From: Amphiscolops sp. MND2022 | Lineage: Eukaryota | Assembly: GCA_964187785.1 (NCBI GenBank) | Contig: OZ076409.1 | Span: forward strand, 31,808,001 to 31,872,000 | Length of the DNA stretch: 64,000 nucleotides | Reading direction: 5' to 3' | Part shown: piece by piece, positions 18,626 through 52,035 of the stretch | How the letters are laid out: the number at the start of each line of letters is the position of its first letter | How positions within the stretch are numbered: position 1 is the first letter of the stretch | The notes under the pieces: generated by a model | What the model saw: only the letters and a program-made list of their open reading frames with translations | The model's database searches: none | Told to the model about the DNA's origin: nothing | Made by a program: the position numbers and the translations under genes

Positions 18626-18658
18626 TGTTTTGAGAATACGGACGAATGTTTTTGACCG

Positions 18659-20806: not shown

Positions 20807-20811
20807 TACTA

Positions 20812-22027: not shown

Positions 22028-22056
22028 GCTGCAAATTTAACAAATGATGATGATAA

Positions 22057-22236: not shown

Positions 22237-22277
<41 letters not shown>

Positions 22278-22683: not shown

Positions 22684-22744
22684 GCTAGCAAGCAACTAAA
22701 TTCTGTAAGAGTAAGAGAGGTAATGAAGCACTCAAAAAATTTGT

Positions 22745-23373
22745 TAGTGGTTATTGCTACTGACGCTGCTGCTGATTTCTGGGTTAGTCAAGGTTGCGAT
22801 TGGACGAAATAAACCAGTCTCTGTGATTGGACTTACTTCTTTAGGTATTCCATTTGGGTAGCTCTGAATCTCTTTGACAACGTTCAACAAATGAGATAGC
22901 TCCATTCAAGGAATGTCTATTGTTTGTTGCATTTTCCAGCGCTTTTGATGTTGAATAAAGAGTTTTAAGTAAAAGTAGGTTGCTTGAGGATAACGCTTGG
23001 AAGCTACTCTGACTACTCTCGATTTGTTTGAGATAAAGTCTTGAACATTAAAGATGAAGTCAAAATAGTCCATATCATTCTTGTGGTAGGGCATGCGAAC
23101 GTCTAGTGAAAAGTCGAAGACATTGACAACGTTGGTGTAAACGTCGTCCCAAGGAATTTTGTTTAATTCTTGAAACTTGAGAGTCAAATACTTTTGTGGT
23201 GTGTATTCTTTGGTCTCTTCATCTAACTTGAACAGTTGAATATTTGTATAGCTTTCTGAAGAGGACGGATAAGTTTTAACGGTAATTAAAAGGTAACGTT
23301 TTGTACTAACTTCAACTTTAAAACATTTCAACACTTTACAATCAACAGGGTTGATGACAGCAGTTGATGACAT
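22745..23373 (-). CDS. Tandem PC4-like ssDNA-binding protein (tentative); internal stop at 22906
   Basis: Two similar beta-rich units (STKRYLLITVKTY...IQLFK...LTLK.QEL and NKSRVVRVASKRY...LKLF...IDIP*MEL). The frame continues past the TGA. Confidence 0.45.
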
Positions 23374-23484
23374 GATGAAAATTTTTTTTTGTCAAAATTT
23401 TTTGAATCAGCAAATAACAACTGAACTGTAGGTAGTGAACAAAAGTAATGATTTGTATTTGCAAGGTAGGCTTGCAAAGGAAAA

Positions 23485-24087
23485 TTACTCGGTTATTGTG
23501 CTGATGTCATTTGTGGTGGTTGTGGAAATTTCAGATGAAGAATGTTGTTGCAAAATTTCCAATAGACGAGTCGCGACAACAATCTGCTTTTGAACAATAT
23601 TCATCAGCGACGCTATAGTGTGTTGTGGACCTCTGTTGGTTGTTGCTGGTGAGTGTCGTCTCCTTTTTTTCCGACCAATCCGTCTCCAAAGTAGACTCGT
23701 GACACATTCTTTGCTTCGATTTATACGATTGTGTTTGATAGCTAATAACAAAGGTTCCATGAGGAAGTTTCCTTGAACACAAACAAATTTTTCCGAAAGA
23801 ATAATGAAGAAATTGAAATAACTGTAGGGACAATTTACATTTTCAAAATCATAATTCAGATGCATCAACTTGTTTTGTATATTGTCAAAACCATAAAGCT
23901 TGATGTGATATTTGCACTGCTTATTTTTGTTACAAAACTTAGTTGTCTGATGTTTAGCCACAGCAAATTCAGGAGCTACCAGAAAACTTTGAAAATTGTT
24001 TGAATTTGTAGTAACAAACAGACACTTGTTTAGATTGAATTTCTCCCGAAAGAACGACGGCAAGTGCTGCTGCTGCTCTCTATTCAT
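23485..24087 (-). CDS. Polinton hypothetical protein (RRIGRKKRRR NLS-like)
   Basis: 200-aa ORF, head-to-head with pPolB. Confidence 0.55.
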   Translation of the reverse strand: MNREQQQHLPSFFREKFNLNKCLFVTTNSNNFQSFLVAPEFAVAKHQTTKFCNKNKQCKYHIKLYGFDNIQNKLMHLNYDFENVNCPYSYFNFFIILSEKFVCVQGNFLMEPLLLAIKHNRINRSKECVTSLLWRRIGRKKRRRHSPATTNRGPQHTIASLMNIVQKQIVVATRLLEILQQHSSSEISTTTTNDISTITE

Positions 24088-24091
24088 CACG

Positions 24092-27000
24092 ATGCAGTCG
24101 TCTGACGGCGCAACAGCAACTCCTTTAACTTCTTAGCAATCCCATGTAACTTTTGTTTGTGGTAAATGTGGAAAAGAGTTTTCGCGCAAATACAACCGAA
24201 ACCGACATGAAAAGACCCACGACAAGGATGATTTACACTGTGGACAGTGCAGCTGCATTGCAAAAAGTAGCCAAGACCTCAACACTCATAAATCTCTGAA
24301 GCATGTGGAAAAGAAAAACTTCAAATGCGGCTACTGTGATTCAACCTTTGCAACAATGCTCAAGTTGCAACAGCATACACATACCGAACATGAAATGTTA
24401 AAATCACCAAATTCTCAACTGAACGATGCCCAATTTGGCGATGATGAACCACTGAAAGAACTTGTTCGTAGAAAGAGACACATTATGGGGGATCAAATTG
24501 TTTTGCTACCCCACCAAACAACTGTCAATTTTCTTTTGAAGGATGAAGAGATTGATAATATTTGTCAAGTACTCGATGAAGCTTTTGCAAGAATAAAAAG
24601 GGTATCCAAAATGAATGTCAGTTTTGGATACAATCTCTCAAACAACGAAACTGGCGAATATCGGTACTACTACTCAAATGACAATACCACGGTCTTACCC
24701 AAACCAAAGCTAGTAGAAAACTTTGAACAATTCAAACTGCTAAAACAGGACATTTTCAACACTGACTTTATTGAAAAACTTACAAACTTTCGCGACAGCA
24801 CAAAATGGACTTTTTTTGCCTAACCAACGTCTCTCTACATGCCACACACTTGTCACTCCTGCCAATGGGCAGCACCGATCAAGATGTGGTAGATATTCCG
24901 GATTTCATCAAATCCGCAAGGAGTGTGTGGACACTTACCTTCAACAAATCCACAAAAAGAAAGCTTAATGATAATCTTTGCGTTTTTCGTGCCTTGGCTG
25001 CCTTCCAACAAAACTCCATGCATGGATTGAAATCTAAAACAATGGAGCTTTTTCAAATGTACATTCGCGGAGTGCAAAAGAACGTTCAAGATTTTGCCGG
25101 TATTGAGCTGTCGGACCTGCCAGACGTTGAAAAGTTTTGTTCTTGCGCCATCCGAGTGTTTTCAGCTGAACTAGATGTACACAATGTAGTACAAGGTGAA
25201 TTGCTATACCGAAGTAAAACGTTGGAAATGGACATGCAATCCAATTTTTTGATCTGCTTCTAGTCGATAACCACACTTGTCTAATCCGAAATTTAAATGT
25301 ATTTTATCGACGATTCAAGTGCATCAAGTGTGAACAGTACTTTTCACGACTGATTGAATTGAATCGCCATCTGAAGTCATGCTCGGAAAAATCAGATCAC
25401 TCCTATCCAGGTGGGAAATACACGCCCACTGAAAGTTTTTTCACGACGCTAGAGACCGTGTTTGATGTCTGTGTTCCGCATGAGCATAGATTCTACAAGT
25501 CTTTTGTTACTTTTGATTTTGAATCAATTTTGAGACAAAAGTCGTCATCAAAACGGCAAACAAATGAATTTGATACCAACCAAGATGATTGTTTCATCAA
25601 GACAAAAAAATTGGAGTTTACTCATCAACATATTCCCGTATCGGCTGCAGTATATCAAAATATTACAACAGACGACTCGGCTGCAAAGTGGCTAGTGGAA
25701 AAAGACCCTAACGTTCTGGTAGACAAGTTTGTAGACTATTTAATGGACTTGTCCCTCAAAAATATCTCTCACCAGCGACAAAAATTTTTACCCTATCTAG
25801 AACAAATTGATGAAATTATTAGATTTTGAACCAGATGACACCATGGGAGAGTACACACACTCAGATGATGAAGGAGCTGCTCTAAACGAAACCACTGCCG
25901 CTACTACTACTGTATCCAGCACACAGCAGAGATTGCACAGATTCCTGAAACGAACACGAACACAGTTCTTACAATACATTGACCAGCTACCAGTTGTTGG
26001 TTTCAATAGTGGATTCTACGATTTGAACTTGATAAAGCCATATCTTTTAAAGTCGCTGCAGCGTTTCCTTAGCTCGTCATCCATCAAGTGTATTAAACGA
26101 AATACTCGCTTCTTACTCCTTTCGACACCAAACCTGCGCTTCATGGACTGTAGTCATTTTGTTGCTGCTGGTACATCATTAGACAAGTTTTTGAAAGCTT
26201 ATGGTAGCAAAGTCAGCAAGTTTTTTTCCTTACGAACATCTCACCCGTTTTGAAATTTTACAAGAAACTAGATTACCACCCTACGAAGCATTCTTTTCCT
26301 CACTGAAGAATGAAAACGTTTTGGAGAACGAGGTTAACAGTTTTGTTCGGAACGGCGGCAGCCTCACCGAGGACATTAAACAAACATGGGACCACGAAGG
26401 GTTTCAAACAATGATGGATTATTTACAATATTACAATAACCTTGATGTTTATCCCCTCCACAAGGCTGTGACCAAAATGGCCCAATTCAATGAACAACAC
26501 TCGATTGACTTGCTGAAGGAAACTCTAACACTCAGCGGTGCCGCCAACAAAATTTTACATCGATCAAACAAAGGCGAAGGAATTTTTTTGTTCAATTATA
26601 AAGACAAGGATTTGTATCAAAGTGTTCGAAACAACATTGTTGGAGGGCCAAGTATAGTGTTTAGTCGTTACGAAAAAACTAATGAAACTGTAATCAATGA
26701 TGAAAAAGTCAAGTCAATAGTTGGTAATGATGCCAACGCTTTGTATTTATCTGCTATTGGTGGGAACATGCCAACTGGACTGTTGACTCATTACGTGTGC
26801 AACAGCGACAACGCTCTAGTTTCCGAAAAAAGTAAATTTTTACAAGCCGAACGACAGTATGTTGCTTTTATCTCCAAACATCATCACGACCAAAACCCAA
26901 GTTGTTCAGTGACCACTCGTTTCACAAATATGCGCCACCAAGTTAGAACACTCGTTCCCGATGCTATCTGTGTGTCCTGTAAAACTGTTTGGGAATTTAT

Positions 27001-28521
27001 GGGATGTTATCATCACGCCCATGACTGTATAAGTTGGGTTAGTTGACAAAATTTTAATTTTGAAATAATGAATCATACTTTCTTTTGAAGTGCTTCAAAC
27101 TGCTAAATGTTTCAGCCGCCTCTAATTCATGGAAAAACACCGGCGAAAATTCGTGAAAATGACAAGGAGCGTACGAAAGTTATTCTAAATGCAGGATATC
27201 GTGTGATTGAGCAATGGGAGTGTCAATGGAATCAGCTTAAAGAAACAGACCCCGAAATAAAAGAATTTGTGAGGAAATTTGAATGTCCACCACAAAAGTT
27301 TTCAACGTTGGAGACTTTTCTCAATGCAGTTCTGAAAGAAAAAGTCTATGGAATAGCTGAAATTGACATTCACGTTCCAGATCACTTGAAGGAACACTTT
27401 AAAGAACTTCCGCCCATCTTCAAAAATACAACTGTCGAGAGGCAACATCTTTCCGCGGAAATGCAAGATTATGCCAAAGAGTTCGGTTTGATGAAAAACG
27501 GTTGGAAATGTCTTGTCGCCAGCTACTTTGGAGAAAAGATTATGTTATCTACCGACTACATCAAGTGGTGTTTAGAACATGGTTTGGTTGTTACAAAATG
27601 CTACCAGTTTCTTACAAAAAAGCACAACCCTTCAAAGATTTTTTGGATTTTGTAACAGAAAACAGGCGTCGAGGAGATGTAGACAAGTCGCTCAGTGTGA
27701 TTGCAGAAACATCCAAACTTATTGGAAATAGCGCATATGGCATCCAACTCATAAACAAATCAAAATTTCAAAACACGCTTTTTGTTGATGAAAGAAAAGT
27801 TGATCAAAAAATCAATTCTCCGAAATTCCGGTCCAATGACATTGTGGATGAAAAAATATACGAAATTAACATGGCTAAAAGAAAAACTGTGCACGATGGA
27901 CCCATTCTCGTTGGTTTTACAGTACTAAACAATGGAAAACAAAGAATGTTAGAGTTTCGTTACGACTTTCTCGGCAGAATTATGAGACCGAGGTCTTTCC
28001 GTGCTATAGAGATGGACACAGACTCTTTCTACATGGCTTTGACAGAAAACGATCTATACGAATGTTTCAATGAGGTTACGAAAACACAAATGCAAGAAAA
28101 TGCAAAGCATTATCATGAACAAGAAGATTGCTATCTACCAAATGCTCAACTGAATTTTCTAACACGAAGCTGCTGTAAAGAACACGGTGCAATGGATAAA
28201 AGAACACCTGGACTTTTCAAAATTGAATGGAAAGGAACGTAAATGATTTGTCTCAACAGCAAAACCTACTGTGCATTCAACGAAAACAACAAAAAGATGA
28301 AAATGGCTCTTAAAGGAAGCAACAAAAATCTAGAGTCGCCATTGGAGAGATTTAAATTTGTCTTGTTCAACAAAGTCCCCTACGAAGGATCCAACAAAGG
28401 GTTTCGCTACTACCGAGGAAACATGTTCACATATAAACAAAACCAAATGTCTATAACATTTTTTTATTACAAACGATTTGTGCATGCTGATGGCATTACA
28501 ACATCCCCAATAAATGAATAG
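24092..28521 (+). pseudogene. Protein-primed family B DNA polymerase with N-terminal C2H2 fingers and an inserted VSR-like nuclease; intron 27038-27115; several frameshifts and stops
   Basis: Three C2H2 fingers. Exonuclease motifs FDFES, GFNSGFYD, YNNLDV. Polymerase motifs VGGPS, DANALY, KLIGNSAYG, DTDS, KRTPGLFK, CLNSKTY. VSR-like PD...EFMGCYHH...WECQW joined by a phase-0 GTTAGT...TTTCAG intron. Confidence 0.93.
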
Positions 28522-32500: not shown

Positions 32501-33410
32501 TTGAAAATGATTGCTCAGTCGAAACTATATTATTGAGCTTGTTATCTTATCAACTGAGACAAGCAACTAACTGTAACAAATACAAATTGGATTGACGGCA
32601 AACTGTAGCAATTGTTAGAACGTTTGAACTGAATTTGAGTAAGCGTTGTATCATTTGTGTCCCTCGGACCTTCAGTTTTTACTATTTATATGTGTAGCAG
32701 CATGACACTCAAAATATTGCTGGTCATACTACTAAAAATAGAATAAAAATGAGAAAAATCTTGAATAAAAGAAAGCAATATTAATAATAGGGGAGAAGTG
32801 TTTGTAATTTATAGGACCATCGGTCCATTTGACTTAGAGCGGCGAAACTCCTGGGGGAAGAGGCAGGCTACCGCGATCGTCGAAAGCCATCTGATCGAAA
32901 CGAGGCTCGTTTGGCGCAGCTTACTGCAACGCATGCAACGTTCTTTTTGCAAATACTGTTTTCGTTTTCAAATTGGCAGGCAACATTTTTTCTGTTTTGG
33001 TTTTGTCAAATTTTGGAATGATTTCTCAAACTTAAAATTTTGTTCGCCAAAGACAGAAAGCAAGTACTAATTTGAAAACAGGAATCTAAAGGTAACATTA
33101 CCAATTCAAAGCTTCATTCGACCCATGACTCAATTCAATCAACAAAAACCGGAACGTTATCAGATTTAAGAGTTTTTTCTTTAGGATCAATGCTTTTTAC
33201 GAATCCAATTTTTACACTACTGTAATTGTTTTTAGGTTGAACAGCTCATCGAATTGTTTTAGTATTATTTGCCTTAAACAAACGTGTTCATTGCTACTTT
33301 TCAAACAAATGCCAACAAACTATGCTTGGAAGTCTAGTTGAATTGTCGATTGGGCGAAAGATTGTTTTGACACTAGTAGTAAGAATACGGGATCCAGTCC
33401 TAGTAAAAGG

Positions 33411-34120
33411 TGTAACGATAAGCGCTGGCGCTTGAACCGCAACTTAGAATGGAGGAACCAAAGCAGCGAATAGGATCCGGGACCTAGATCTCCGCGGCCC
33501 TAGCTCATTTTCCCTCCGAAGGAGCTAGTCCCATGGTGGGGGAACCGTCTTGTACGAAACTCTCTGGCCTGGTCCTAGTCTGTAATTGCTGAAGGTAACA
33601 GGCATCTTGCATGATTCAAGACCACTGCTCAACTAGCCTCTAAAAAGGGTGCTGAAAACTAGAGAAGGTTGAACCATAGTCTTGGAGAATCTGATAAAAT
33701 CGCCAAATTGGGTAAACAAATACAGATGTTAAGGGCAGCTCTCGAGCATATCAATCTACTGCAAAGAAAACATTATAAAATCAAGAGTTTGAGTCACTCG
33801 ATGGAAATTGACCTCGGCTTCCCAGCGCTAGCGCTAGTCACCACACAGGACACCGTGGAGTTCTTGGGCAAGCATGGGGAACACTGGTTTCCGCTACGAA
33901 AGCAACGTTAATCTCCCAGGGATGGGCACAACACCGTGTTCTGCAGATGGAATAGACGTCTATACAGCCGTCTCTTGTGCTCGTTCTTCGCGGGCGGCGT
34001 CTTCTGCTTTTTGCCGTTTTATTTCTGACAGGTCTTTCAACTTTAACATGTATGGGTGCCACGTCAGACCTTGAACGAATTTTTGCATCGAAAGTTTCGT
34101 TATGGGCAGTTGCCGTTACT
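33411..34120 (-). repeat. 3' LTR
   Basis: Direct repeat of 51321-52035; roughly 20 differences counted by eye. Confidence 0.95.
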
Positions 34121-34887: not shown

Positions 34888-37800
34888 TTACTGAGCCGAG
34901 CTGCGGCGAGCTCGCTCCTTTGGGGCATCGTTAGAGGCTTCGGCATCTTCGGTTGCTACCGACGCTCTGCGTCGAGGAGAGACTATGGTGAGGGTGGCTT
35001 CCGAGTCAGATAGGTCCTCGGGGAGTGACAGCTCAGCAATCAGCTGCACCAAGGCGGCATCAGGGGTCAGCTCAGCTGCATGTTCTCCCGTCTGCGGCTG
35101 CTGCGACGACTGGGGTCTTGCCTGCGAGGATGGTGGACTAATGGGTTCGGGTTCCAAGACGTGAGTTGGCAGATCAATGGTAACGGGCTGGTTCAAGGAC
35201 ATGGCCATCGTTGGCGCTACCATGACAGGCGCGAACGCCTGTTGCCTCGCGATCTCCGCTCTGCTCTCCACTACCAACGAGACGCGTTTGGAGACCCAGC
35301 CAGGCTGGCTCCAGAGCTCGCAAGCTCGTTTCCAATTGGGGAAGCTGGCGATTTCCAGTTCTAGACAGTGTTCTTCCCACTCTGCACGTGCCTCGGGGCC
35401 CAGCACGGAATTAATTTCGTCGTGCAGCACGATCGACATGTCTCCTGACATCGTCATCTTGCCCTGGGGTTTCCATGCAGATCTCCTGGGGAAAGGGGTG
35501 ATGCGACACTGGAGATTCCTTTGTCGGATTTGGGCGGCTCCTTCGATCCAACCCGGGATTTGAGCCAATTCCACGCGCTGAATCTGCCGGTTGAAAATTT
35601 CAGGGGCACGTCCAACGGGCTTCGCTCTCGGCCATCCTAGTGGTTCCTTCCAGTACCGATTGGGAAGGCTGATGCTCTTGAAGCTATACAGAGGATCTAT
35701 GGGTGGGCCAGCACTAGTGCTGGCGCGAATTACCTTTCGAATAAAGTCCTGGCTCCAGGGGAATCTGAAGGGGACTCCGTCTAGGCTGAGGGGTGCGGAG
35801 TACCAGTTGATGGGGCCGTGCTCTCGCGGCAGAGGGCATGCCTTCCTTGTGCGGGCGCGCAAGAGACCCGTCAGATTTTCTTCTAACTGTGTTTCCGACT
35901 TCAAGGTGGTGTATCCATGCGGCATCTCGCCACTTAGTACAGCGTGCACCACTCGCGGGTAAGCTAATGAGGGGCGTCCCTGGAGATACGTGCAAAAGGA
36001 CGTCATATGCACTTGAACGGCGGTGGCTAGAGGCTTGGTGGGGTATCAGCACACGCCTATAGCGCCGAAGATGGGGGCCAACACGGGAGCCATGGCGGCC
36101 ACAAAGTCTTCCACCTCGGCCAGCGTCAGATCAGCAATTTGCTGTGGCATCGGAAATCCCGCTGTCTCCCGTGGGATTTGGCGGTCGGCATTGTGTAGGG
36201 GCTGGGACTGGTCTACGCCCACGAATAAGCCAGAGGCGAATACCAGAGTCGAGTATAGCCAGTGCTGGACGGACGCACGCATGCGTTCCAACTGGGCGGG
36301 TTAATCTTCCTGATCCTTGGAGGTCATTAGATGTCCCCAGCGGATTAGGCTACGGAGTTGCCCCTGTGCGATGACTAAATAGCTGTAGAAAGAGGTCAAG
36401 TCGCAAGAAATTACAATATCGACCAGCAGAGCTAGAGGGCCGGCCACGAACTTCGTCGGACCCATCGTTAGCGCGAGCGCTAGCACCTCTCCAACGGTGG
36501 CTTCTCCGATAGTTTCCAACAGCTTGTCGGCCTGTATGGTGGTGAGTGAGAATTCGGCTGTTACCACCTCGATGTTCCATCCCAGGCCAAGGCTGGTACA
36601 AAAGGCTTCTAAGGGACAGTTGAGCTCTCTAGCTAATTCTGCCAAGGTCCTGCTCACAAATCTCGTTTGATACCACTGGGCATACGTGGTGCCAACGGCG
36701 TCCACCTCGGTCTTTAAATTGGTTGCCTCGGCAGCTACAATGTGTCTTAGGCCTACGGGCAGCTTGACAGGCTCGATTCCCGCGGCAAAGTGAACCTGGG
36801 GAATGGTTCTTTCTACGGTACGTGCGGCAGGCCATGCTCCGATTTGCTTCACCAGTTCGGTCAGCTCCGTCCGCACGGGAATCTCTTTGTCCTTGCGCAC
36901 CAGCCAAATGTAGCGGCGGACAGCCTCACGTTCAATCACGTTGGATTCCCGCATGACGCGGTTGCCATCCAGATCGAAGGCCATTCGTCCCATATGCATG
37001 CCGTGATCGAAGAACACAGCATCGTCTATTGTCAGCTGTGCGTTTCCTGAATGTTCCACAGCGATCAACACTCTGGAAATGGCAGCAAAGAAAGCTGGAT
37101 AGGATAGTGCATCAGGGCGTAGATCTCCCCGGTCCACTCACAGGTTTGGGGCGTAGATAGCAAACTCGATTCTACGCGCCTTGCATACCTCCAGCAGGAC
37201 GTAGACAAATTGCTGCAGGCTTTGCGGCCAATACATGAATCCCGGAGGGGACACGAAGAGCGCTAGCGCTCCCAGGCGACCCGGAAGGATCCCTGCGGCA
37301 TGCTCCATCGCGTCAGCCACCACGTTCACTAGGGCTGCAGCATTTCCAGGTCGCCGGGTGTCAGTCATAATGGTGTCCAGCTCGCGTAGCAACCCTTCAC
37401 ACGCCATGTGGTCCAAAAGATTAGCGAAGATTACGCGCCGTGGAGGTGGCTCCTTCAATTACCCTCTCAGATTCGGGTCGTACATTGCTCCAACCATCTC
37501 GGCTACTTCAGCGAAGCGGGATAGGAGCATGGTCAACACCAACACGTCGGGCATTAAGTTGTCGATTGGTAAGTCGCTTTTGCAGGTGGAATCGACTGCC
37601 ATACAGTAGCGCGCGCGCTGCAAGGCAGCTTTCAGTAGGGGCTTCATAGAAATGATATTGCGGGCGTAGCGGGCATTTGCCTCCCATGTCTCGGCTGCTC
37701 GGAGCACAAACCGTGCAGGGAACTGTTCGGTGATGTTGTGCTGCAAAGGTGCCATGTAGTCGTTTGGTGTCGCTGGCAGTTGTTCTCGAGCACGTTGCTC

Positions 37801-39160
37801 CCAAGCCTGCTCGGTAATGTCCGCATCACGGGGGCGTAGCAGCCGTGTGACCTGCGCTGCTATCGTGGTTCGATTTACCTCCTTCTGGTCTGCGTCGGTG
37901 GGGGGGGGCGCTCTCTTCTTGATCGCATACATTTTGGCATACAAGTGTTCAGCAGCCATCCAGATCCTTTTGCAATCATTAGTCACTACTGAGCCGGACA
38001 CATCATCTGATGGAGGAAGGAAGGCTGGCGGGTGGGCTTCCTCTATGGCTTCAGGGGCTTCCAGAGAGATATCGGTGGTGGTGGTGCCCGAGGGCACAGA
38101 GCTCACCTCAGAGCCGGCCTCAGGAGTTCCGTATCGCTCGATGGCGTCCTCCATGGTCATTTGTGGCGCACCTCGGCCAAGGTGGCCTACACGATACAGA
38201 GGCCTAGCGATTACCACGCTTTTCATTTGGGGTCGAGGCACGTCGGCTCGCTTGTCCGGAGGGGGACGACTGGTTGGGCTTTCCGTCACCGAGCCAGTAT
38301 GTGCGTCACCGAGCCGGCATCCTCTCCGGTCGTTCGCTTTCGTCCTGCCTCTTCGCGGGACCCAACCATGGCACTTCCGCTTGGTCCAGCTGGGACTTCA
38401 ACGTCCATGGATGCTGTCTCTGCCAGAGAGGTGGGGGGAGGATTGCAGCCCGAGGGCTGAGCGTCAGCTTGCAGATAAGTGGCCAGACCAGGGATTCGTT
38501 GCTCCACAGCTCGGACAAAGTCAGAGGAATTGGGGTAATTGGCAACGGCCTGCAGCGCCACTATCACAGCTTGCTCACCTGTGCTTCGTTCAGCCAAATC
38601 TGGGTTCGGTACGGGTGGTAACCAGGACCCCGAGGGCTCCCGATCAGAGACTGGTGAATTAACCGAGGTTTGCAGCACCATATGCGGCGCCCTGTACGAT
38701 GCTCCAAAGGCAGGTGAGCCAGAATAAGTCAGTGTCATGGGTACTGGCTTTGGTATTGGGGGTGGTGGCAACGATGAAACATTAGCAGGCACCATGCACA
38801 ATGAAGCTTCTTGCTCGAATCTGGTGCCCTGGCTTGGACCATATATCGCGTGGTTCTCTCGTCCAAGAATTGATGAGTCAGGTCGTGTCCGTCCCAGGCG
38901 TTGTTGAGACCAGTTAGAGTGCGACGATAGCCAGCTACCTCCGTGACAATAGATAGGGATACGCCTGGCAGCGTTTGCATTGTCTCGAGCTGGGTGAGTA
39001 ATGCGGCCACGCCAGCTACGGCCACTGGTGAAAGACCGTTCCTCAGCCGTTCTTCCACGTGCTGGGCCTGATTGACCCTCTGCGCTCGCGCAGGAGAGTT
39101 CTGAGGCCTAGCACCGTGAGGCCCTGTTGTAGGCATTGAGTTGTTTGGATGGTATGCCAT
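34888..39160 (-). pseudogene. Extra ORF ('ORF3', ~1400 codons) in the env position; contains a possible SGNH-like domain; not Env-like
   Basis: Five track ORFs between 34888 and 38289 share one frame, separated by four single stops. Two upstream pieces (38286-38801, 38735-39160) join by frameshifts. No signal peptide or clear TM anchor seen. Confidence 0.8.
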
Positions 39161-39172
39161 TTACTCATAGGT

Positions 39173-39193
39173 CTAAAAAAGACTGTCGTTAGG
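39173..39193 (-). promoter_or_regulatory. Putative 3' splice acceptor for an ORF3 subgenomic mRNA
   Basis: Minus strand CCTAAC-gacag-TCTTTTTTAG, 12 nt upstream of the ORF3 ATG. Confidence 0.55.
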
Positions 39194-39431: not shown

Positions 39432-41830
39432 CTATTCCAGCCCTATACTCAATATCGACACGTACACGCGGTTGTGCAAGACCACTTGAATACCAGTCCC
39501 CTCAAACATGTTCGTCAAAGTGTGGTACAGATTGACCAACGAGAATGCGGGTCTCTCCGGATCCAGTATGGGCAAGTGGACCTTTGCTGATCTTTTGTCC
39601 GTTAGGCGCTGTATCAGGTGCGTCATACAACGCAAGTAGTTGTCAGTCAGCAGCGGTGCACGCTGATTTGCTCTGATTGTCAATAAATGAATACTTTGAT
39701 TGGGATAGGGGTTTATGTCAGGTGGGATGGTGAGAATCTAACCCACCTTAGGCCGTAGGGAGAATACGCTTTCTTTGCCGCACTCGCGCAGCACATACCG
39801 TAGGGCAGCTGAATTGGTGTTCAAGTCAGCGGGGCACGCTAACACTATGTCGCCCTCCGCTTGCAAAAAGTCGGTTATATCGTACGAAATATGTTCTGCC
39901 GAGTTAGGGTATAAAGCTCCCGGGTAGATAATCTCCCGTCCAGGCCCGTCATCAGCAGACAGGCACACCTGGGCGGAGCGCCCTCGAATTGCAGCCAGGT
40001 CCTGCCACACTGAGCATGGCATCGCTAGGTTATCGCTGCTGGCCTTGACCCACGTATCCAGGGTGCTTAGAGCGGCCTTTGGGGAGAGAGGAATCTCAAT
40101 CCTGTGAATCCACTCATCCAGCAGTCGGATTCGGGGATAGTTGGTGAAACAAGTGATGAATAGTTCCAACCACCATGCGAATTTTGCCTTGCCTCGATAC
40201 CAATCAACGATGTGGAAACAAAGTATCAGGTCCGCAGTGGTGAGGGTCCTTAGACCTTCTAGGCAGGACAACAAGTGCAGCGGTTCCACTATCGCCTCCA
40301 CTCGTGGAGCAGTAACCAGCAACCACCAGTGCGGCGCTGGGCTATACACTTTGCCGGGTTCCACCTGGACCCCGTACTTATCGCACAATAGATCGGCAGT
40401 GATGCACTGGGCCATTTGCACGGGCTCTCGTTCGAAGTTGAATGGTCCAAATGCAATGTTGCCGGGTACAGGAGGCATCACGGTGGCTAGGGTGAACTCT
40501 AGCCCCTTCCCATCGCTAGTCCACTCCTTGAATCTGGGACATGGGGCCTTTGTTACCCCAGGTGATGATAACTTTTCCAGAATGGTGTCCATTGGGTGGT
40601 CTCCAGACCGTTACAGGGAGGAATAAGTCTTCTCGGCTCTTACCATAAGGCGATACACCAGGTTTCCTTCCCGTTCCGGAGGAACTCCCCGGGCTCCAAT
40701 GGGAACCCTCCGGTTCTCATTTACAGCTAACAAGCAGACGCAATCTCGCAGCCCGCAGGTTCCACATTTATAGCGTGGCTGCCGGCCGCTTACTTCTCAG
40801 GTGGTATCTAGGAGCTTCCGAGGGCTCCGACAGAGCCTCTGCAGACCCTGGGGCTTCGGCTGCAACCTCGGCTGCAACTTCGACCGAAGATTCGACTTTC
40901 GTTGGCGTTTTTTTCTTCCTTGTTCTAGCCTTTGCTCGGACCAGCCGTTTCTTTTGCGCCTTGGGTGGTCTCCCCCTCCCCCTTTTGAGAGAAGGAGCGG
41001 TCCCCGCTCCGGGTAGCATTGCGGGAGCACTGGGCACGTTGGACTGATCGTCGCTTTCATTGCTGGCGGATTTCAAAGGAATTGGAGGAACGGCCGGCCA
41101 AATGGGGTAATTACTGAGAAAATCCGTCAATGATGGGCTCGTGAAAAGGGGAGCCGACGTTCCCGGCATCGACGACTGTTTCCCGGGAGATGATATTTGT
41201 GGTGACGGAGAGCGCGCGCGCTCATGGTCAGAGAATAGTTGAGGTAGGCGTTGAGTAGGCGAGATCACTTGGTCTGAAGAAAGTATGGGGACTTCAGGTG
41301 CCAGTTGGTCAGCATCGACAGGATCAGGTGGTACCGGCAACATGACATCAGATAATTCGTCGTCAGTGCCGGAAGTGGAATAGTCAAACTGCTGGTAGTG
41401 CATGCGCGAGCTTCCCGCGCGGAGCTTCGTACGCAAGCGAGTGTCCATCCAGTGGTGTCTTCGCGAAGGCAAAGATACATCTGATGCCTCTGAAAGCAGT
41501 TGTTCAGTCTTGTACGAAGGTAGTGATTTGTTATCATCGACTACGTCGACGGAACGATCGGGTTCAGGGTCCATGAGTACTACAACTTCAGCGCTGTACG
41601 CATGCGCTGCGGCGAGCTCGAGCGGTTCACTGTGGTGCGGTTTGAGGCGCTCGAAATGAAACTTTTGGCCAGTGTCGAGCACGTAGACACGACCGTCTTG
41701 AAAGACCTGTACCACCTTGTGTGGGCCCCGCCAAGCACGCATTAGCTTGGGGGAGCCTTTCTGCGGCACATAGCGGCAAAAACCCAGACGAGCTCTCCCG
41801 GCTGGTAAGCTCGTGCTTGAATAGCGCGAT
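39432..41830 (-). pseudogene. Extended C-terminal tail of Pol: AT-hook, Cys motif and two macrodomain-like (TARG1/OARD1-type) units
   Basis: WRGPHKV (GPY/F-like), KRGRGRPPK, CGTCGLRDCVC. Then AQCITADL...WLLVT...LSCLEGLR and LACPADL...PKVG*...IHLLTIR...VHLPIL...NMFEGTGIQVVLH. Pieces link by in-frame stops or frameshifts. Confidence 0.55.
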
Positions 41831-41836
41831 CATATT

Positions 41837-44800
41837 TCAATTTTTTTGCAGCTGATCTTGGTGCGTATTGCGTCGCACCAGGTCGTGAATCTCTTGTTGG
41901 CGAGCCAACACATGATCGACGTACGCCTCATGCGTATCGAAAGATTTAGCGGCGAACTCAGGGTATAGAAAGGTAAGGGGAATCGCCTTCTCAACGCCGC
42001 GGGTTAACAAATAGGGCGAGAAGCCAGTGGTGGCATGCCTTGTGGAATTGTAGGCACCCATGACCTCATCGAGATGCTGGTCCCAATCGCGCATGCAGCG
42101 CGAGAAGAAGACTCGCAACAAGGTTAGTAGGGTGCGGTTTTGGCTTTCTACCAAACCTTGAGTCCGTGGATGTCCTGCAGTGGAAGTTACTTTCGTGACG
42201 TGGGCTGCCTTTAAAAACTCGTTGGACACTTCGGCAGTCAGATTCGGAGCATTGTCCGACTGCATACGAGTAGGTGTGCCTTGACGGGCAAACCACTTCT
42301 GTAGCAGTAACCGAGACGTGGTTATGGCGTCATAGTCATGATGACTGCAGGGAACTGCCTCCGCAAACTTAGAGAAATGGTCGATTATGACCAAGATGAC
42401 GGTATTGTTGTTGTCAGAGGGGCAAATCTTCAGGTGGTCATACTGGACCAATTCGTTGAAATATCTGCTCTGGATGTTTTTTAGCTGGAATCGTACATCA
42501 CTAGGCTTATCGCGCACCTGCTGGCAGGTGAGGCATTGGCCAACATAGCGGCCAACACTCCGTCGGATACCAGGCCATGTGTGACGTTCTTGGATCCGAG
42601 CGACCACTTTCGAAAAGCCTTGGTGACCCATGGCATCGTGCGCACGGAACAAGATTTCGTGCTGGTACAATTGAGGCATGATGATCATGCACCGGCGTTC
42701 GTGCAGAGGGCGTTGGGTAGGGGAATATTGCACACAAAGGACACCATTTTTGTTGATAAACAGGAGGTCCTTTTTCTGACAAAAGTAGTTACGTTCGAAC
42801 TCACGCACGTTCTCAGGAAAGATATCGTGGTCTATGGGCTCGCATTGCACCAGTTTTTTTAGTGCCAGCACATGGACATCGCGGTTTTGGGCTAAGACGA
42901 AATCCTTGATCCCATGCACAGTGTGAGCATGTTCATGAAGCTTAGTGTCGATGTCTCGGAGAGCCATGATTGAGTCGCGTACACCCGAAGGAGTACTTTG
43001 CAGCGTGGCTGCAGTTGCCCCGTTACTGAATATACGGTGCGAGAAGGCACATTAACGGCATGGGTTGGTAGCAAGTAGTCCTTGCTAGCCTCATCCGTAA
43101 TGTCTATCCAGCCTTTATGGATAGTCTGGATAGAAGTCTTCATGCGGCTGTAGTACGGGAGGGGGCGGAGGCGGCAGAGGCGCCGCTAACGCCTTCGCCT
43201 GCCTGTCGCGCCGGTTCGCTCTCCGCGTACGGCGAAGCACGCGAAGCACTTGGTCAGGAGGTTTGGGCTCTAAGTTCTGCAAGTGCGCTGGTAGATCGGG
43301 GTGATTTGGGATTACTCGACCCTGATGGTCGAACCACGGGGCCGTAGGGAGCTTGTCAAATTCATCAGCTGAAAGGAAGTTCCAACGCTCACCTGCGGCT
43401 GGCAGCTGCGCAAGCTGCTTTTCTCGCCATCGATATTCATTGGTTCGTTTGCTCAGGCCATCAGCGTTGCGATGCTGAGTTCGTGGGCGGTGTTCCACAC
43501 GGAAGTGGTACTTGTCCAAGGTCATAATCCATCGGCCAATCAACGCTTGGCCTGTGGAGTAGGTTTTTAGCCAGGACAAGGCTTGGTTATCCAACCGCAG
43601 GGTGAATTTTCGAGGACAAAGGTAACTGTGGTTTTTCACAATAAAGTAGTAAGCTGCATACATTTCCAGCTTGTGGGCTCCGTACTTGGCTTGGGTGGTG
43701 GTGAGTTCCTTGCTACCATGGACTATTGGTCTTAGGCGTCTTTCACCTTGAGGACCCTGCCACTGGTGCAGGATGCCGGAGATGGCAACAGCGCTGGCGT
43801 CTGTGTCCAACACGAACTCTCCCTCGGAATCAGGCTGCGCAAGCGCGGTCGCCTCTATCAACGCTTTCTTGATCTCGTTGAACGCGTTTTGTCGTTCGGG
43901 GCCCCACATGAAAGTAACGTTCAGCCCAGTGACAGCGTGCAGGGGCGCGACCAGCTTGGCGTGCCAGGGGATGAACTCGCGATAGTAGTTGGCGAATCCC
44001 AAGAATCTCTGCATCTCCGTTTTGTTGCGGGGGATCTCCCAGTCGCGGAACTTGGCAACGGCTTTCGGGTCCAGCTTTACGCCTTCTGCAGAGACCACGC
44101 GTCCCAGGTACTTGATCTCTGATTTCATGAAGTCACACTTGGCTACGCGCATCTTGAAACCAGCCTCGCGGAGGCATTCAACGACCTCACGCAAGCGCGC
44201 CATGTGATCTTCGACGGTTTCGGTCGCGATCACGATGTCGTCGATATAGGCCATCACCATGCTGCCTTTGCGGTTAACGATCTTCCGTAGCGCTCGCGCT
44301 ATTGCTCGTTGGAAGGTAGCCGATGCATTGCACAGGCCAAATGGCATCCGCCTCCATTCAAACAGCCCTAACTTGCAGGCAAAAGCGGTCTTGTGGCGAT
44401 CCGCCTTTCGCACGGGAGTTTGCCAAAAGGCCCAGGCAAGGGCTATACTGGTATACCGCGCCAGGCTTTCGTCAATGCGGGGCAAAGGGTAGGCGTCCTT
44501 AATGGTCACCTCGTTTAACGGGCGGAAATCGCAGCAAAAGCGCAACTCCCTGTTTTTCTTTTTTACCATTACGATGCCACTCGCCCAAGGGAACAGCGAA
44601 GGCTGTATCTTTCCTAAGGCTAGCAGGTTTCGCACCTCTTGGTTGGCACGCTCAGCTTTTTCGGGGGACATCCTACGTGCACCTTCACGATGTGGCACAG
44701 CCCCATGCTCTAGCTCTACCGTGTGTTTAGCAATGGTGCAGCGACCGATGTCGGCCTTTTGTTTCATGAACAAATCATCGAATTCATTGAGAATATTTCC

Positions 44801-46885
44801 TAGAGACTCACAAGCGCTAGCGCCCCACAGGTTTTTGACTTCTTGTAACTGCGAGTCCGGCCCAGGAATTGGAGCCATTAGCTCCGGGTCAGTACGTTTA
44901 CGAATTTCGCGTTCCGAAAGTCCCGCCTCACTAGGATCTGATGAGGACAAAAACTCAAATTCTGATGAAGAAGTCAACTCAGAAGCAGTGGATAGATTCA
45001 TTTCACTGTACACTTTATAAACAAAATTTGCACGACTGTCGTCGGCTTCAGTTTCTTTGCTGGCCTTTGTAGGGGGTTCCAGGTTCTGGGGCACAGCCCG
45101 ATACACTAGTGTCACAGGCACTACGGTGCCCAGTTGCACTCCGCACCGCACACGCTGTGGGTTTCTGGTAAGGTTTATTAAACTCACGTACAATGTTCCT
45201 GTCTCACTGACAGTGGCCACGTTGTCCTCTAAAGAGATGACATTATGCAGTAAAGGATCAGACAATGATGCGTTAAGCGCCACGGTCCGAAAGATCAGTG
45301 GTTCAAGCGCGTCAGTGATGAGCTTTGCTCTTGTCACCGTGCGCTCGAAAGGTTGTAAGACCAAATCGCCATCCAAAGCAACCGGAGTGGCTAGCGAAGT
45401 GTCACCTACCTGTGTGTGGGCATGGTGCCAGACGGGCTTCACGGGTGCTCGCACCACAATCTTTATGGACTTGAGATCCACCAGGACCTGATAGGAGCGG
45501 AGGAAGTTCCGACCTAGCAGGAAGTCCTCTACGCCCATTGCATCGTCCACCACGACAAAGTTGGTTTCAAGCTCGTACCCTCCCAATTGGAAACGAACCT
45601 GCTCAGCCAAACCGAAAGTTTTGATTGTCTTCCCATTGGCAGCGTACAAGTCGACTTGATAGGGTTTCAGGACCTTGCCGGTCCGGGCTGCCACTCGATT
45701 GACGGCGGAGAACGTCAATATTGATACGCCGGAACCAGTGTCCACCAATCCACGTAGAGGGATGGGTGATGCATGGGGCACGACGAAAGAGACAACGAGC
45801 GACGCACGCTCGTCTATACGTGCTTCACCAGTTGGCTCTTGGTGGTTAATATTGTAGCACTTCAGTTCTTGAGGGCCCAAGCATAGGCCAGGTGGGAATA
45901 CATCCACCGCTACACAAGCCTCAAGCTTCACATCTACGCCGTCCATGGTCGCGCAGACGGGTACTGGGGAATACGTCGTCAGGGTTTCAGATTCTCCCGG
46001 GACGTACCATTCTCTGGGACGGGGCAACTCGACTCGCGTGTAGAGGATGGATAATTCAACCCAAAGATTCGCGAGGGTTAATGTTGGTCTGCGGACTTGT
46101 TCGGCGGCTAACATCAGGTGGATAGATATCAGCGTCCCTCCTTGTGGGTCGAACGTGGTAGGTTCTAAACAGGTTTGGACTTGCTTGGCACCGCAAGTGA
46201 TTGTCAGCGGGGTGTGGAATGCTGGCGGTTCTGCCGGATGCAGCATTAGTATACGATCGTCCTCTAGGGGTACCGTGTGTGCAGCGACACCGGCCGACTC
46301 TACTTCGGGCCATCTATTGTAGGTGGGTTCATCTCCAGTTTTCGGGACGTGGGAATGTTCGCCACACTGGAGATCAGCATAATCAAAGACTCCGCAGTTG
46401 GAGCATTGATGGATCCCGGGATAGCCATCCAAGACACCATCAGTCACGTCTTCGGCGGTGATTTTCACGCCTTCAGGCTCGGGGGCAGCTGGTGGTTTGC
46501 GAGCTTGGTCGCGATTGGGACAGTCTCGGGCAATATGCCCGGCTGGGCCACAATTAAAGCAGGCACCCATAGGTGGGCGTACGGCGGGTTGTGCCGCTGG
46601 TTGATTTGGTGGGGCGGCATTAGTCGCCGGCGGGGGATGTATCACTCCTTGAGGTAGCACCATCTTGTTTGGAGGTAGTGGTGCAAAGGGATGAGGTCTA
46701 GACCTCATAGCCAATCTAGGGTCATAGGGTTGTTGTGGGGGTTGCGTGGGTTTCGGGCGATTGCGCTGTAGTTGGCGGGTGGTGAAACGCAGGGAATCCA
46801 CCGTGGGCGGTTCGGTCATGAAGGCTTCCGAAGCGTACACAATGGCAAGCTCCCGCCCCAATACAGTATCCCGCACACCCTCCAT
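41837..46885 (-). pseudogene. pol: Gag C-terminus and Pol: Zn knuckle, aspartic protease, reverse transcriptase, RNase H, integrase (frameshifted)
   Basis: CFNCGPAGHIARDC; LVDTGS; RMPFGL.NA and YIDD; LDTDAS and NADGLS; HDAMGH...CLTC; IIDHFSKF, SDNA, GLVE. Confidence 0.95.
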
Positions 46886-48844
46886 AAAGCGCTGCAGGAT
46901 TTCATAACGCTAGGTAGTGATGGTCTCTTGTGGAAATCCCTGACTTCTAAGACCTTCTAGAGCGTCCAAATACTGCATCCAGTCCTCTTTTTCCCGCTGG
47001 ACGCGGCTTTGGAAGGCTTGCCGCACTTGCATGCGATTCCCTCCAGCGACGAAGCGGCTGTACAACAGCTCGAACACCTTCTCGGGGGTATCGCGTTCAG
47101 ATTCGGCTTTGTTGATGATGTAGTTGCGAGCTTCACCTTCGAGGTGACCAATGATGCTCCAAGCTCGGTCTTCGGCCGAGACATTTGTTTGAGCTCTTTT
47201 CAGGTACCTTGGCATGATTAGGATCCATCCATCGATAGACCCGTCCTTGGAGCCGCGATACATGTTGGGCCTTGTTTGAGCCATGTCCCTCCCTGCCAAC
47301 AGAGGAGCCAGTTCCTTAGACATGGCTTTGGATATGGCTGCCGTGAATCTCAGCTGCTCAGGGGAGATGGTCCCTGCCTCTTCGTCCCTCGGTTCCACTT
47401 CACGCGCTCCGCCCTCGCTACCGTGAGTGGCTTGCACGGATATGTCCGCAGTCTCTTCCTTCCTTCGAGTGCTGCTCGCGCAAGGAGTGCCCGAAGGCAT
47501 TCCGTCGTCGGCTGTCAAGTACAGTGAATCTGGTGCGGATACCGTGATAGGGGCCGTCACGTATGCGGTTCCCTCAGTTTGGGACACTAACGTGGCCTTG
47601 GTGCTGGATAAATCAACTTCAGTAGAGGAATCTAGATAGATTGTAGACATCGGATCCACGCCTTGATCTCGAGTGGTGCCTAGGGCTGTGGAGGGCCTTG
47701 ATGAATCTGCCGAGTCATGGGGTCCTCTCATCTGCACTCGTGCAGGCTTGCGTTCCGTATCAGGCATAGTGAGCACTAAATTCCCGGCTGCTCCATTGCT
47801 TCGAGTCTCAGACGTTGCCGACCTGGAGGTGCTGGGCTTTAGTGCACTCACCAGTTCAGGTTTTATCGCTCGCCTTGGGTGAGGCGGTTCCCTGGCTCGG
47901 GCCGAGCTTCCGCCTTGCACGCCTTCTCCCAGGCTAGGTTGTCGCGGGAGTGACCTTTCGCGCCTCATGACGTTGATGGCATTGAGTACGGTGTGCATTT
48001 GTTTGCCCAAGTCATTGATCTGGGTCTCCACGCGCAATTTGCGGGCCATCAGCCTGTCGTTCATTTCGCCCATTCGGTGGCCTAATGCATCCACTCGAGC
48101 ATTCTGCACGTTTTGTGCGGTACGCAACTGATCGCTGATCTGCAATCCTTCTCGCATTGTCGTCTGCATCGTCTTGATGTTCTCTACGATGGCGTGGTGT
48201 TGCTCGTTGCATTCAGCACGAGTGCTGGCTGGCCCGGCTAGAGCGCGTTGGGTCTCGGCCTGGGCCTCCAGCAGTGCCGTCTTGTACACCGAAGACCGTT
48301 GTGACGAGGCCACGGAATTGGTCATGCTCCGCACGCGGGACGCCTCTGGGCGGCGCTCGCCTGCATTCACCATGGGCGGTCGAACCTTCTTGTGTTTCCC
48401 ATGGGCACATACTCGAGGGGGTCCTCGAGCGATTCCACACCCTCGTGATCTCGTATAGGCCATGCCTCCCACATAAGTGAGGTCCTGGTCCATGGCTTGT
48501 GGGCCAGGATTTGCCTCCGCGCCCAGGGGTGCGCGCGAGCACCCTTCCTCAGCGGCTGGTTCATTGGTCACATTTTAGTTGGGCCAACCTTCTTCCATCT
48601 CGTTGGTCCTCTCGCGGCAGGTCTCATCAACACATTGCTCGGTTCAGCGAGAATTTCCAGTAACGACCGAGCCCTCGGAGGGAGGAACCATAGCGGCCAA
48701 CTCCTCCTTGCGTTGTTGTTCGATAGTAACTTCGTCAGACATGACTTCTGAAAAATGTGAACCGTCCATCGAGGATTCAACGGTGACCCAAGACTGCGAA
48801 CTCATGTTGGATTTCGCCGGTTCTAGCGTGACTAATACGCTCAA
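46886..48844 (-). pseudogene. gag: Gag-like ORF (coiled-coil N-terminus plus capsid-like region), frameshifted
   Basis: YRGSKDGSIDGW, LEGEARNY and FQSRVQREKEDWMQYLDALEGL (retrotransposon gag homology region). The 5' end is uncertain and may extend to ~49170. Confidence 0.8.
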
Positions 48845-51287
48845 TTCTAGCAGTCAAGCAGACGCTAGCAATTCAGAGGGCCTCAGGCTAGGTTTCCGAA
48901 GATGCTGGAGCCGATGGAGCAAGATCAGCCCTTCACTCGTCCCGGTGAAGACTTAAGAAAATTGATGTTTTTCAATGTCCAAGATTTTTCAAAACACGTT
49001 CTAAGGCTCGTAGGCTGTTCAAATTTGCACAGCGCTTTCCCGCAAGCACACTGGGCCAGAAAAGCAACCTGGTTTAGGGCAAAAAGTCTCCAGTCACCCA
49101 CAGGAAGAAAAATCGCACCACAACACTCAAGAGGCTCGTGTGTGCACTGGAAGCGCCGTATCGAGCCCAAAATTGACCAGCAGATCTTAGGTAAACGTAG
49201 GTTTACGAAATTGAACTCAGATTTGAGCGGCGCCCCTTCAACACAGTTTCGCCTAGGTACAGACGTGCGGTACCACTATGTACCGAAATACACTGTTTTT
49301 CACGTCTTTTTCAAGATTGCGGTCCACTGGAATGAGCTAGCAAGCTCAAAATCTCAGCAACAACGTAAGAACTAGCACAAGTTACAATGGTGGGCTGCAA
49401 TATAGCCCCACTCGTCGGCTAAGGTACCCGGGTTACTCGGAAAAATTAAGAAAAACTTGCCTTTTTGCGCACCTTTGTGGGTGCCGCGTTTTTCCTATTT
49501 TCTCAACAAGTATCACACAGATCGGCACCAAACTTGGTAGTTTATGCCAGTGGGCACCTACGATGCCACTGATATGGTCGACTTGAAGCGCGAGCGCTTA
49601 TTTAAGGTTTTGATCCACTATGTACGTTGTACAAAAAAAACACTGTTTTTGACTACTTTTTTCACAAATTGACCAAGAGGATCACCTCAGGAAGTGATAC
49701 GGCGGGCAAAACGGGACCAACGTGTTGCCCCACTATCCGTAACACTGGGATAAACCCTCAATTGGTTGTGCCCGTTGGGTATAAGGCACTGACAGTCCTG
49801 CAGTTTTGGATTTTTTCGGTCCTCTTACGCTTCTCTGAAGTCGAAACGTCAGAGAGCTTTTCTGAATTTTGGTGAGCGATACGCTCACCAAATTTTCGGC
49901 ACTAGCGTTTATTTTAGTGGTGGTTACGAAAATGCAACCACTTTTTGGCTAGGATTCAGGAATCGATGACCCGACCCTAACTCAGAAACAGTCCAGTTAT
50001 GTGGAAAATTGGTCAAATTCAGTGCGTTTTTCCACTTTTCTCAGCACTGAATGGGAGTTTTTACGCGCGATTTTCACCACCACGCGTTATTTTTACTACA
50101 AAAACAGAAAATGAGGGCGTTCCAGCCCGCTCCGTTCAAATAAGCTTCGCTCTCAAGACTTTCAGACAATGCACTTTCCATGCCTGAAAGTGCCTTAAAT
50201 CACAAGTTTTCCGCACTGTGTCAGCCCCAGGCTGCCTAAATCCGCTGCAAAAGTTGCAGTTAGTGTCCTGTGGGTTAGTTACGCTAGGGGTAACTCCGTA
50301 AACTGCTCTTTTACATCCTTACACATGTGTACTTTCGTGTTTTGGGTGCCCATTGGGCCAAATTTCCACTTTTTCTTCACTTTTCTGGCACCAAATTGGC
50401 ACTTTTATCACAACTGAAGGCCAAAATGCTGCCTTTCGTGACTTGTACTAGTTCTCTCGAGCTTTGTAGTTGCTTTTTTTGTATTTTTCACAAAGTGTTC
50501 CGTGTTCCATTGAGCACTGGTGCTCGAAACCAAGGAAATACCGAAAAAAAACGCAAAATTGAGGTTTTTCGTCCCAAGTGCCATCTTTTTCACAGAAAAA
50601 CACTTCATGGGGCCCCGTTACATTTGTGATAAACTTTTACTGACCTGCATCAACTATTCCCCGTCGAAAAAAGTGCATTTTCAAAATTTTCGCCAACCAC
50701 GAGCCATCTGAGCGACGCGTCTGGTCACAGGGGTACATCTTCACCACGCTTTTTCTCCACATCTAGACCAGATAGAGACACGCGATTTGGACCATTAGCA
50801 TTGTCTACTATTGCACTTGCTGTCCACCAAAAACCATACCTCTAGGACGTCTCCACGTGAAATGGGAGTAGAAAACAGGCAACACACAATTTGACCCTTC
50901 CCTCGCCTCCCCCCATCCACCAGTTACCTTCTTGCATGGCATAAAATGGCTGAAAATAGCTTGAAAAACCTGTTAGACACCCGTAGCCACGCGCTACGGT
51001 TCTCTGTACCTGCAAAAAGATACCCGCTGATGGGCACACAACACATCACACAAAAATAGCGATTTCCTTCTAAAACACCTAAAAACACCATTTTCGCACC
51101 TGAAAACGTGATTTTTCCGGCACCTGAAACGTGGTTCAACGCCTCTCCCGGCTCCAGTAGGATGTAGTACGACTAAAAACAGGTAAAACTCTGCTTCTCT
51201 CCCCTTTTCCAGAGTCGAAACGGGCTTGGCGCTGATCACCAGGGGGCCAGATCTTTTAAAAACCGGTAGGGAAAGTTTCCCAAGACG

Positions 51288-51305
51288 ATCCCTCTGTGGT
51301 CGCCA
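51288..51305 (-). promoter_or_regulatory. Primer-binding site, tRNA-Arg-like
   Basis: Minus strand TGGCGACCACAGAGGGAT; TGG complements CCA, and TGGCGACC resembles tRNA-Arg PBSs of Gypsy elements. Confidence 0.65.
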
Positions 51306-51320
51306 AAAAATGAGTTTCTA

Positions 51321-52035
51321 TGTAACGATAAGCGCTGGCGCTTGAACCGCAACTTAGAATGGAGGAACCAAAGCAGCAAATAGGATCCGGGACCTAGATC
51401 TCCGCGGCCCTAGCTCATTTTCCCTCCGAAGGAGCCAGTCACAGGGTGGGGGAACCGTCTTGTAAGAAACTCTCTGGCCTGGTCCTAGTCTGTAACTGCT
51501 AAAAGTAACAGGCATCTTGCATGACTCAAGACCACTGCTCAACTAGCCTCTAAAAAGGGTGCTGAAAACTAGAGAAGGTTGAACCATAGTCTTGGAGAAT
51601 CTGATAAAATCGCCAAATTGGGTAAACAAATACAGATGTTAAGGGCAGCTCTCGAGCATATCAATCTACTGCAAGGAAAACATTATAAAATCAAGAGTTT
51701 GAGTCACTCGATGGAAATTGACCTCGGCTTCCCAGCGCTAGCGCTAGTCACCACACAGGACACCGTGGGAGTTCTTAGGCAAGCATGGGGAACACTGGTT
51801 TCCGCTACGAAAGCAACGTTAATCTCCCAGGGATGGGCACAATACCGTGTTCTGCAGATGGAATAGACGTCTATACAGCCGTCTCTTGTGCTCGTTCTTC
51901 TTGTGCGGGCGGCGTCTTCTGCTTTTTGCCGTTTTATTTCTGACAGGTCTTTCACCTTTAACATGTATGGGTGCCACGTCAGACCTTGAACGAATTTTTG
52001 CATCGAAAATTTCGTTGTGGGCAGTTGCCGTTACA
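51321..52035 (-). repeat. 5' LTR
   Basis: TGTAAC...GTTACA; direct repeat of 33411-34120. Confidence 0.95.

Follow-up and report, generated by a model that had tools for sequence, protein, structure and literature searches.

A third open reading frame with a predicted SGNH-fold domain is under purifying selection in a large Ty3/Gypsy lineage

The role of open reading frames (ORFs) other than env in long terminal repeat (LTR) retrotransposons is an open question, on which a locus in the genome of Amphiscolops sp. MND2022 bears. The analysed stretch, hereafter the window, comprises 64,000 nucleotides (assembly GCA_964187785.1, contig OZ076409.1, positions 31,808,001 to 31,872,000; coordinates below count from its first letter) and contains an 18.6-kb minus-strand LTR element with a third ORF (ORF3) between pol and the 3' LTR. 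A first-pass annotation, made from the sequence alone, had proposed an unusual LTR lineage in which a spliced accessory protein with an SGNH-like domain, binding RNA or lipid, stands in place of Env. Is this ORF a gene, and what could its product do? The follow-up analysis showed ORF3 to be real, lineage-wide and under purifying selection nearly matching that on the integrase core. It is tentatively read here as an accessory gene that a large Ty3/Gypsy lineage has conserved, with an SGNH domain that would be a pseudo-enzyme binding an anionic ligand and not hydrolysing it.

Purifying selection on ORF3

34888 to 39160, minus strand: ORF3, ATG at 39160, stop at 34888–34890, about 1,424 codons, pseudogenised in the window copy

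In the window copy, four internal stops (37461, 37140, 36303 and 36048) interrupt a single frame running from 38397 down to 34888, over which the other two frames hold dozens of stops, and the frame changes twice, near 38,840 and 38,300. The one ancestral frame of ~1400 codons proposed earlier was borne out by natural open frames of 1,403–1,551 codons (stop to stop) in five sister groups. The identity of the ORF3 protein was 75–84% for A2/A3, 36–41% for B and about 28% for D; family E also has an open frame, and only partial frames, with 47–52% identity, were found for family C.

A DNA search of the 1.07-Gb genome gave 985 candidates, 40 of which were scored, and 39 copies were fetched besides that of the window. 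They were 83–97% identical and each held the ORF3 region whole or in part. All 39 were broken or truncated, at scattered places: among 66 stop positions, 13 were common to two or three copies and none to more. Changes common to at least four copies comprised 598 synonymous and 128 non-synonymous ones (pN/pS 0.07), whereas private changes gave a pN/pS of 0.88. The corresponding shared and private values were 0.04 and 0.73 for the integrase core and 0.04 and 0.97 for the SGNH part of ORF3. By segment, the shared-change pN/pS ranged from 0.04 to 0.14, with no segment showing an excess of amino-acid change. These values were obtained by projecting copies with BLASTN onto a divergent natural frame, so that some gaps are artefacts, and dS between families has reached saturation. 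The purifying selection that the comparison of copies was meant to reveal was thus seen, and it is hardly in doubt that ORF3 is a functional gene.

The lineage is abundant. Its LTR-end and primer-site pattern was found at 1,277 places in the genome, the window's own family left out; seven of these were sampled, four with both a macrodomain and ORF3 and three without ORF3 in the 20 kb fetched. ORF3 diverges far more than reverse transcriptase (RT): RT identity was 90–94% among families A, B and C and 79–80% to D, and that of ORF3 about 36–50% and 28%, respectively. More distant ORF3 relatives, at 24–33% identity, were present in other sequence records. One of them, P0156, probably comes from another organism, because its best match in the genome reaches just 36%. 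A profile search for long distant ORF3 relatives found none, which is weak evidence, and a cellular origin of the SGNH domain might still be found beyond the best 150 of 645 representative matches that were inspected. A distant ORF3 fragment labelled as a bacterial protein from a metagenome-assembled genome (P0211, on an 816-bp contig) is probably eukaryotic contamination.

Predicted domains of the ORF3 protein

38840 to 39097, minus strand: small N-terminal domain, 12 invariant residues in 8/8 alignment rows
37020 to 37611, minus strand: SGNH-fold domain, from the structure model, VIA-align and column counts
36246 to 36786, minus strand: all-helical domain, from the model, pLDDT mostly 70–93

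The structure model covered ORF3 residues 395–1300, parts of it with low confidence. In this model the SGNH part, only ~200 of ~1,430 residues, is predicted to form an alpha/beta/alpha sandwich matching SGNH structures, and the model together with VIA-align makes an SGNH fold, as claimed in the first-pass annotation, very likely. That annotation had placed blocks I, III and V, without the catalytic His, at ~37065–37610, and the motifs were indeed located there (DS at 37593–37588, N at 37422 and LRP at 37122–37114).

The residues of the active site are conserved unevenly. The block I Ser was present in 25/26 rows and the block III Asn in 28/29, with an Asp also in 28/29, across 24–30% identity. 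The block II Gly was mostly absent (2/30 at the candidate column). In block V, Arg occupied the His position, as set by motif spacing and not by atom-level superposition, in 29 of 34 rows, and the acid was variable (D in 18, T in 7 and S in 7 of 34). A nearby N-x-x-D-H motif could offer another His, but P0234, P0238 and P0201 have Asp or Tyr in its place. Of the catalytic signature, Ser and Asn are therefore kept, whereas the block II Gly and the block V Asp-x-x-His are not, and classical catalysis is probably absent. The net charge of the SGNH part (−3 to 0) argues against simple bulk binding of RNA or membranes.

The N-terminal domain, for which no Pfam or PDB match was found, is followed by a linker rich in Pro, Ser and Thr by composition, and the helical domain by a less confident net-basic C-terminal region. 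Pfam gave no significant match for any piece of ORF3 or for the Pol extension described below. PDB sequence and profile searches of the ORF3 and Pol-extension pieces returned only matches with E ≥ 0.15, among them the equine infectious anaemia virus (EIAV) capsid, which was judged a chance match. ESM Atlas gave no usable match for the SGNH or helical parts; the helical domain had no relative in the PDB sequence and profile or ESM Atlas searches, no fold search having been made with this domain alone.

A simple hydropathy scan of eight sequences revealed no signal peptide or C-terminal anchor, in agreement with the first-pass annotation, so that the arrangement of an Env, with signal peptide and transmembrane (TM) anchor around a Cys-bridged ectodomain, was not seen in that scan. 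Cys made up 0.5–1.4% of ORF3 and no conserved internal furin site was present; a moderately hydrophobic conserved stretch (hydropathy 1.7–2.6) lies near residue 1030. With the model of residues 395–1300, the structure search returned an SGNH fold and no fusogen among the matches listed, including the best 50 viral-library rows. Of the phrase "in place of Env", the position as a third ORF between pol and the 3' LTR stands, but an Env-like role was nowhere indicated.

The element around ORF3

51321 to 52034, minus strand: 5' LTR, 714 bp, TG...CA ends, 97.2% identical to the 3' LTR
51286 to 51305, minus strand: TGG motif resembling a primer-binding site, at 15 nt from the end of the LTR
50921 to 50980, minus strand: leader cassette with branch point, pyrimidine tract and AG, a 22-nt candidate exon with an ATG (50949–50928) and a donor-like GT at 50927
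40611 to 48805, minus strand: gag-pol, encoding Gag with a CCHC knuckle, protease (PR), RT, RNase H (RH), integrase (IN) and a linker, by Pfam
39432 to 40610, minus strand: Pol C-terminal extension, an alpha/beta domain and a TARG1/DarG-like macrodomain, two stops in the window copy, by alignment and model
about 39474 to 39900, minus strand: TARG1/DarG-like macrodomain, by model and Foldseek
39173 to 39192, minus strand: splice-acceptor-like site, CTAAC at 39192, pyrimidine tract, AG at 39174–39173
33411 to 34119, minus strand: 3' LTR, 5' edge damaged

The acceptor-like site, reported in the first-pass annotation as branch point, pyrimidine tract and AG ahead of the ORF, is present 12 nt upstream of the ORF3 ATG and is kept in most copies holding the site (AG in 33/35 and CTAAC in 31/35; 5/40 copies are without the site). 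A scan of the 18.6 kb for the full pattern gave two occurrences in the sense orientation (39192 and 50976) and none in the antisense orientation. The second occurrence lies just upstream of the candidate donor and would delimit the 22-nt exon, whose first ATG was found in 10/11 family-A sequences where the site could be located. For the donor near 50927, also suggested earlier, the result was mixed: families A, B (GTGAGT) and C have a GT at the corresponding position, whereas in D it is not consistent. All families have an acceptor-like YAG ahead of ORF3; its phase is 0 in families A, C, D and E but differs in B. Apart from the donor in family D, conserved donor and acceptor motifs are thus in place, and a spliced subgenomic RNA for ORF3 is fairly probable from these sequence signals. 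In the window family, a splice to 39172 would put the first ATG of the exon in frame with ORF3. A universal in-frame Gag–ORF3 fusion was rejected, since the phases differ between families. Two exact patterns for the junction of a spliced retro-copy gave 0 matches in the genome, an uninformative result, as such copies need not exist.

The 2.5-kb leader (48806–51285) is conserved at the DNA level between A and C without a conserved ORF, none having been found upstream of gag; a TTTCAG...ATG cassette within it is conserved in all five families.

The direct LTRs with TG...CA ends identify an LTR retrotransposon, and a purine-rich tract and ~0.75 kb of 3' untranslated DNA stand ahead of the 3' LTR. 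The window element is flanked by a 3-bp target-site duplication (cct at 33408–33410 and 52035–52037). Among 15 elements examined (loci including L002–L087), the duplication was 3 bp, and never 4–6 bp, in all 13 with both ends found, and two further elements agree. The 4–6 bp that is usual for Ty3/Gypsy, though not a defining feature (PMC2253517), was thus not observed in the lineage. A 3-bp duplication implies an unusual integrase stagger, and LTR finders set to a minimum duplication of 4–5 bp, as in the benchmark settings of PMC2253517, would overlook the ends of such elements or put them in the wrong place. The spacer between the LTR end and the primer-site-like motif (51306–51320 in the window) measures 15–16 nt across all families; a tRNA matching the motif was searched for and not found. 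At L015 and L028 the primer-site spacer directly follows the 3' LTR, which suggests tandem elements with a common LTR. At L088 (58–7964) an LTR pair with lineage ends stands ~7.9 kb apart without a match to RT, macrodomain or ORF3, possibly a non-autonomous derivative.

The gag-pol region is broken in the window copy and forms a single continuous frame in young relatives. Its domain order by Pfam (Gag-PR-RT-RH-IN) is that of Ty3/Gypsy, and no Pfam match to a dUTPase was found in the element. The best PDB match of the RT was Ty3 RT (E 3e-68; retroviral RT 1e-35). In the RT phylogeny called for earlier, a tree without a clade reference set, all families fell on one long branch of their own with 100/100 support; the closest named RT proteins were 41–48% identical to the lineage.

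Pol runs ~780 residues beyond the integrase core and is predicted to end in a TARG1/DarG-like macrodomain. A model with a mean pLDDT of 57 was matched by Foldseek to TARG1 (4j5q; E 1.1e-8, TM 0.80, rmsd 2.8), which points to a macro fold at the Pol C-terminus. The extension is under selection (shared-change pN/pS 0.07–0.08). The alpha/beta domain ahead of the macrodomain may be a second macro fold, since PARP14 macro 1+2 is aligned in one of the Foldseek rows.

Elsewhere in the window, a decayed Polinton/Maverick-like element occupies 15996–28242, with an integrase (Pfam rve, E 7e-12), weak Pfam matches to an A32-like ATPase and a type-B polymerase, and capsid- and protease-like ORFs recognised by eye. 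A tandem duplication of ~4.2–4.4 kb with long (CCT)n-type arrays lies at 7290–15630 (pieces 93–100% identical), and further tandem arrays at 55346, 57228 and 62416.

Possible roles and known systems

Translation of ORF3 from the putative spliced RNA would yield a soluble protein of several domains. With the nucleophile and oxyanion residues retained and the base now a fixed Arg, the SGNH pocket may bind rather than cut: Ser, Asn and Arg could hold a carboxylate or phosphate group, for instance that of a fatty-acyl chain or phospholipid head. By way of the remaining folded domains and the long, disordered linkers, the protein might then serve as an intracellular adaptor placing or protecting the particle or ribonucleoprotein at membranes. 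That ORF3 is such a ligand-binding adaptor is put forward with some reserve. As purifying selection is evident in no fewer than five families with well over a thousand insertions, and the active-site change is fixed, the lineage provides a direct test of whether retroelement SGNH domains are kept for binding rather than catalysis.

The ORF could instead take part in counter-defence, blocking host silencing or, with the Pol macrodomain, ADP-ribose signalling, while the SGNH domain acts as a scaffold for contact with host proteins. The much faster divergence of ORF3 than of RT between families despite selection, the TARG1/DarG-like macrodomain also borne by complete-looking members and a lineage of more than 1,200 insertions are in keeping with this role. 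It is nevertheless rather unlikely, since no segment shows an excess of shared amino-acid change and the nearly invariant pocket residues are more easily reconciled with a small ligand than with a protein surface that varies. An atypical hydrolase or acyltransferase, its Ser activated by Arg, by the His of N-x-x-D-H or by a partner chain, is unlikely as well. The strong conservation of Ser, Asn and Asp would suit it, and two-chain chimeric triads exist in SGNH proteins, including ZfL2-1 (PMC10792757); yet the block II Gly is mostly missing, the block V acid varies, the alternative His is lost in three relatives and loss of His abolishes ZfL2-1 activity (PMC3905857). Still less probable is an Env substitute by which particles would pass from cell to cell across membranes with no fusion glycoprotein involved. 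The idea has been raised for the GDSL ORF3s of rotifers (PMC5408684), and the Env-like position, the splice motifs and the hydrophobic stretch near residue 1030 are in keeping with it, but ORF3 lacks a hydrophobic N-terminus, a C-terminal anchor and a conserved internal furin site, is poor in Cys and matched no fusogen among the best 50 viral-library rows listed. Neutral captured cargo, which might be suggested by the broken or truncated state of the window copy and its 39 close relatives, is refuted by scattered and mostly private breaks, strongly synonymous shared changes and a frame that persists across families at 28% identity.

A broader picture extends the ligand-binding adaptor and is, taken as a whole, doubtful. 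In this picture the elements would form a deep Gypsy lineage not described before, with a geometry of integration peculiar to it (3-bp duplication and 15–16-nt spacer) and a two-part kit for non-Env access or host evasion: a Pol-tethered macrodomain reversing or reading ADP-ribose marks at integration, and a spliced 1,400-residue pseudo-esterase gripping lipid by its Ser/Asn/Arg pocket and routing or shielding the particle. No account of the lineage, of a retroelement SGNH domain with Arg in place of His or of 3-bp duplications in Gypsy elements was found in the literature, although Repbase, subscription papers or supplements could hold one.

Several known systems share single features with the lineage. 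The ORF1p esterase of ZfL2-1 is likewise an SGNH domain in a retroelement accessory protein with a proposed lipid or membrane role, but ZfL2-1 is a non-LTR element with the domain upstream of pol, an intact and active triad and a coiled-coil dimer (PMC3905857); its structure 4c1b appeared as a weak Foldseek row (E 3.0). The OSK domain of Oskar also has an SGNH fold without a working triad and serves binding, whereas it belongs to a host gene, lacks the nucleophile Ser kept in ORF3 and binds RNA (PMC10792757); Oskar 5A4A was absent among the best 50 VIA rows listed. Errantivirus env, of F type or HSV gB type, is the third ORF of a Ty3/Gypsy element too, but its signal peptide or TM segments flank a cysteine-bridged ectodomain, and none were seen in ORF3 (PMC13524379). 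Macrodomains occur on LTR-type retroelements in fish endogenous retroviruses, there as an additional ORF of epsilon-like retroviruses, whereas the macrodomain of the window lineage is TARG1/DarG-like and fused to the Pol C-terminus (PMC4977317). Gypsy elements of giant size that carry many additional domains have been described as well (PMC6431247).

The closest parallel is Vesta of bdelloid rotifers, in which a GDSL/SGNH ORF3 of LTR retrotransposons has already been described (PMC5408684). The proposal of an unusual lineage with a non-Env third ORF thus holds in that the ORF is real and selected, but overstated its novelty. Vesta is likewise of Ty3/Gypsy type and carries, between pol and the 3' LTR, an ORF3 of SGNH fold that lacks TM or coiled-coil features of Env and is assumed to be expressed from a subgenomic RNA; no assay of the rotifer GDSL ORF3s has been made, and they gave no within-genome selection signal (PMC5408684). 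The dUTPase between PR and RT and the intact SGNH residues of Vesta-type elements were not found here. In Vesta, ORF3 is ~1.3 kb long, S, G, N and H are intact and a dUTPase is present (PMC5408684), whereas in the window lineage a multi-domain ORF3 of ~4.3 kb has Arg at the His position and is accompanied by no dUTPase match, a macrodomain after the integrase and a 3-bp duplication.
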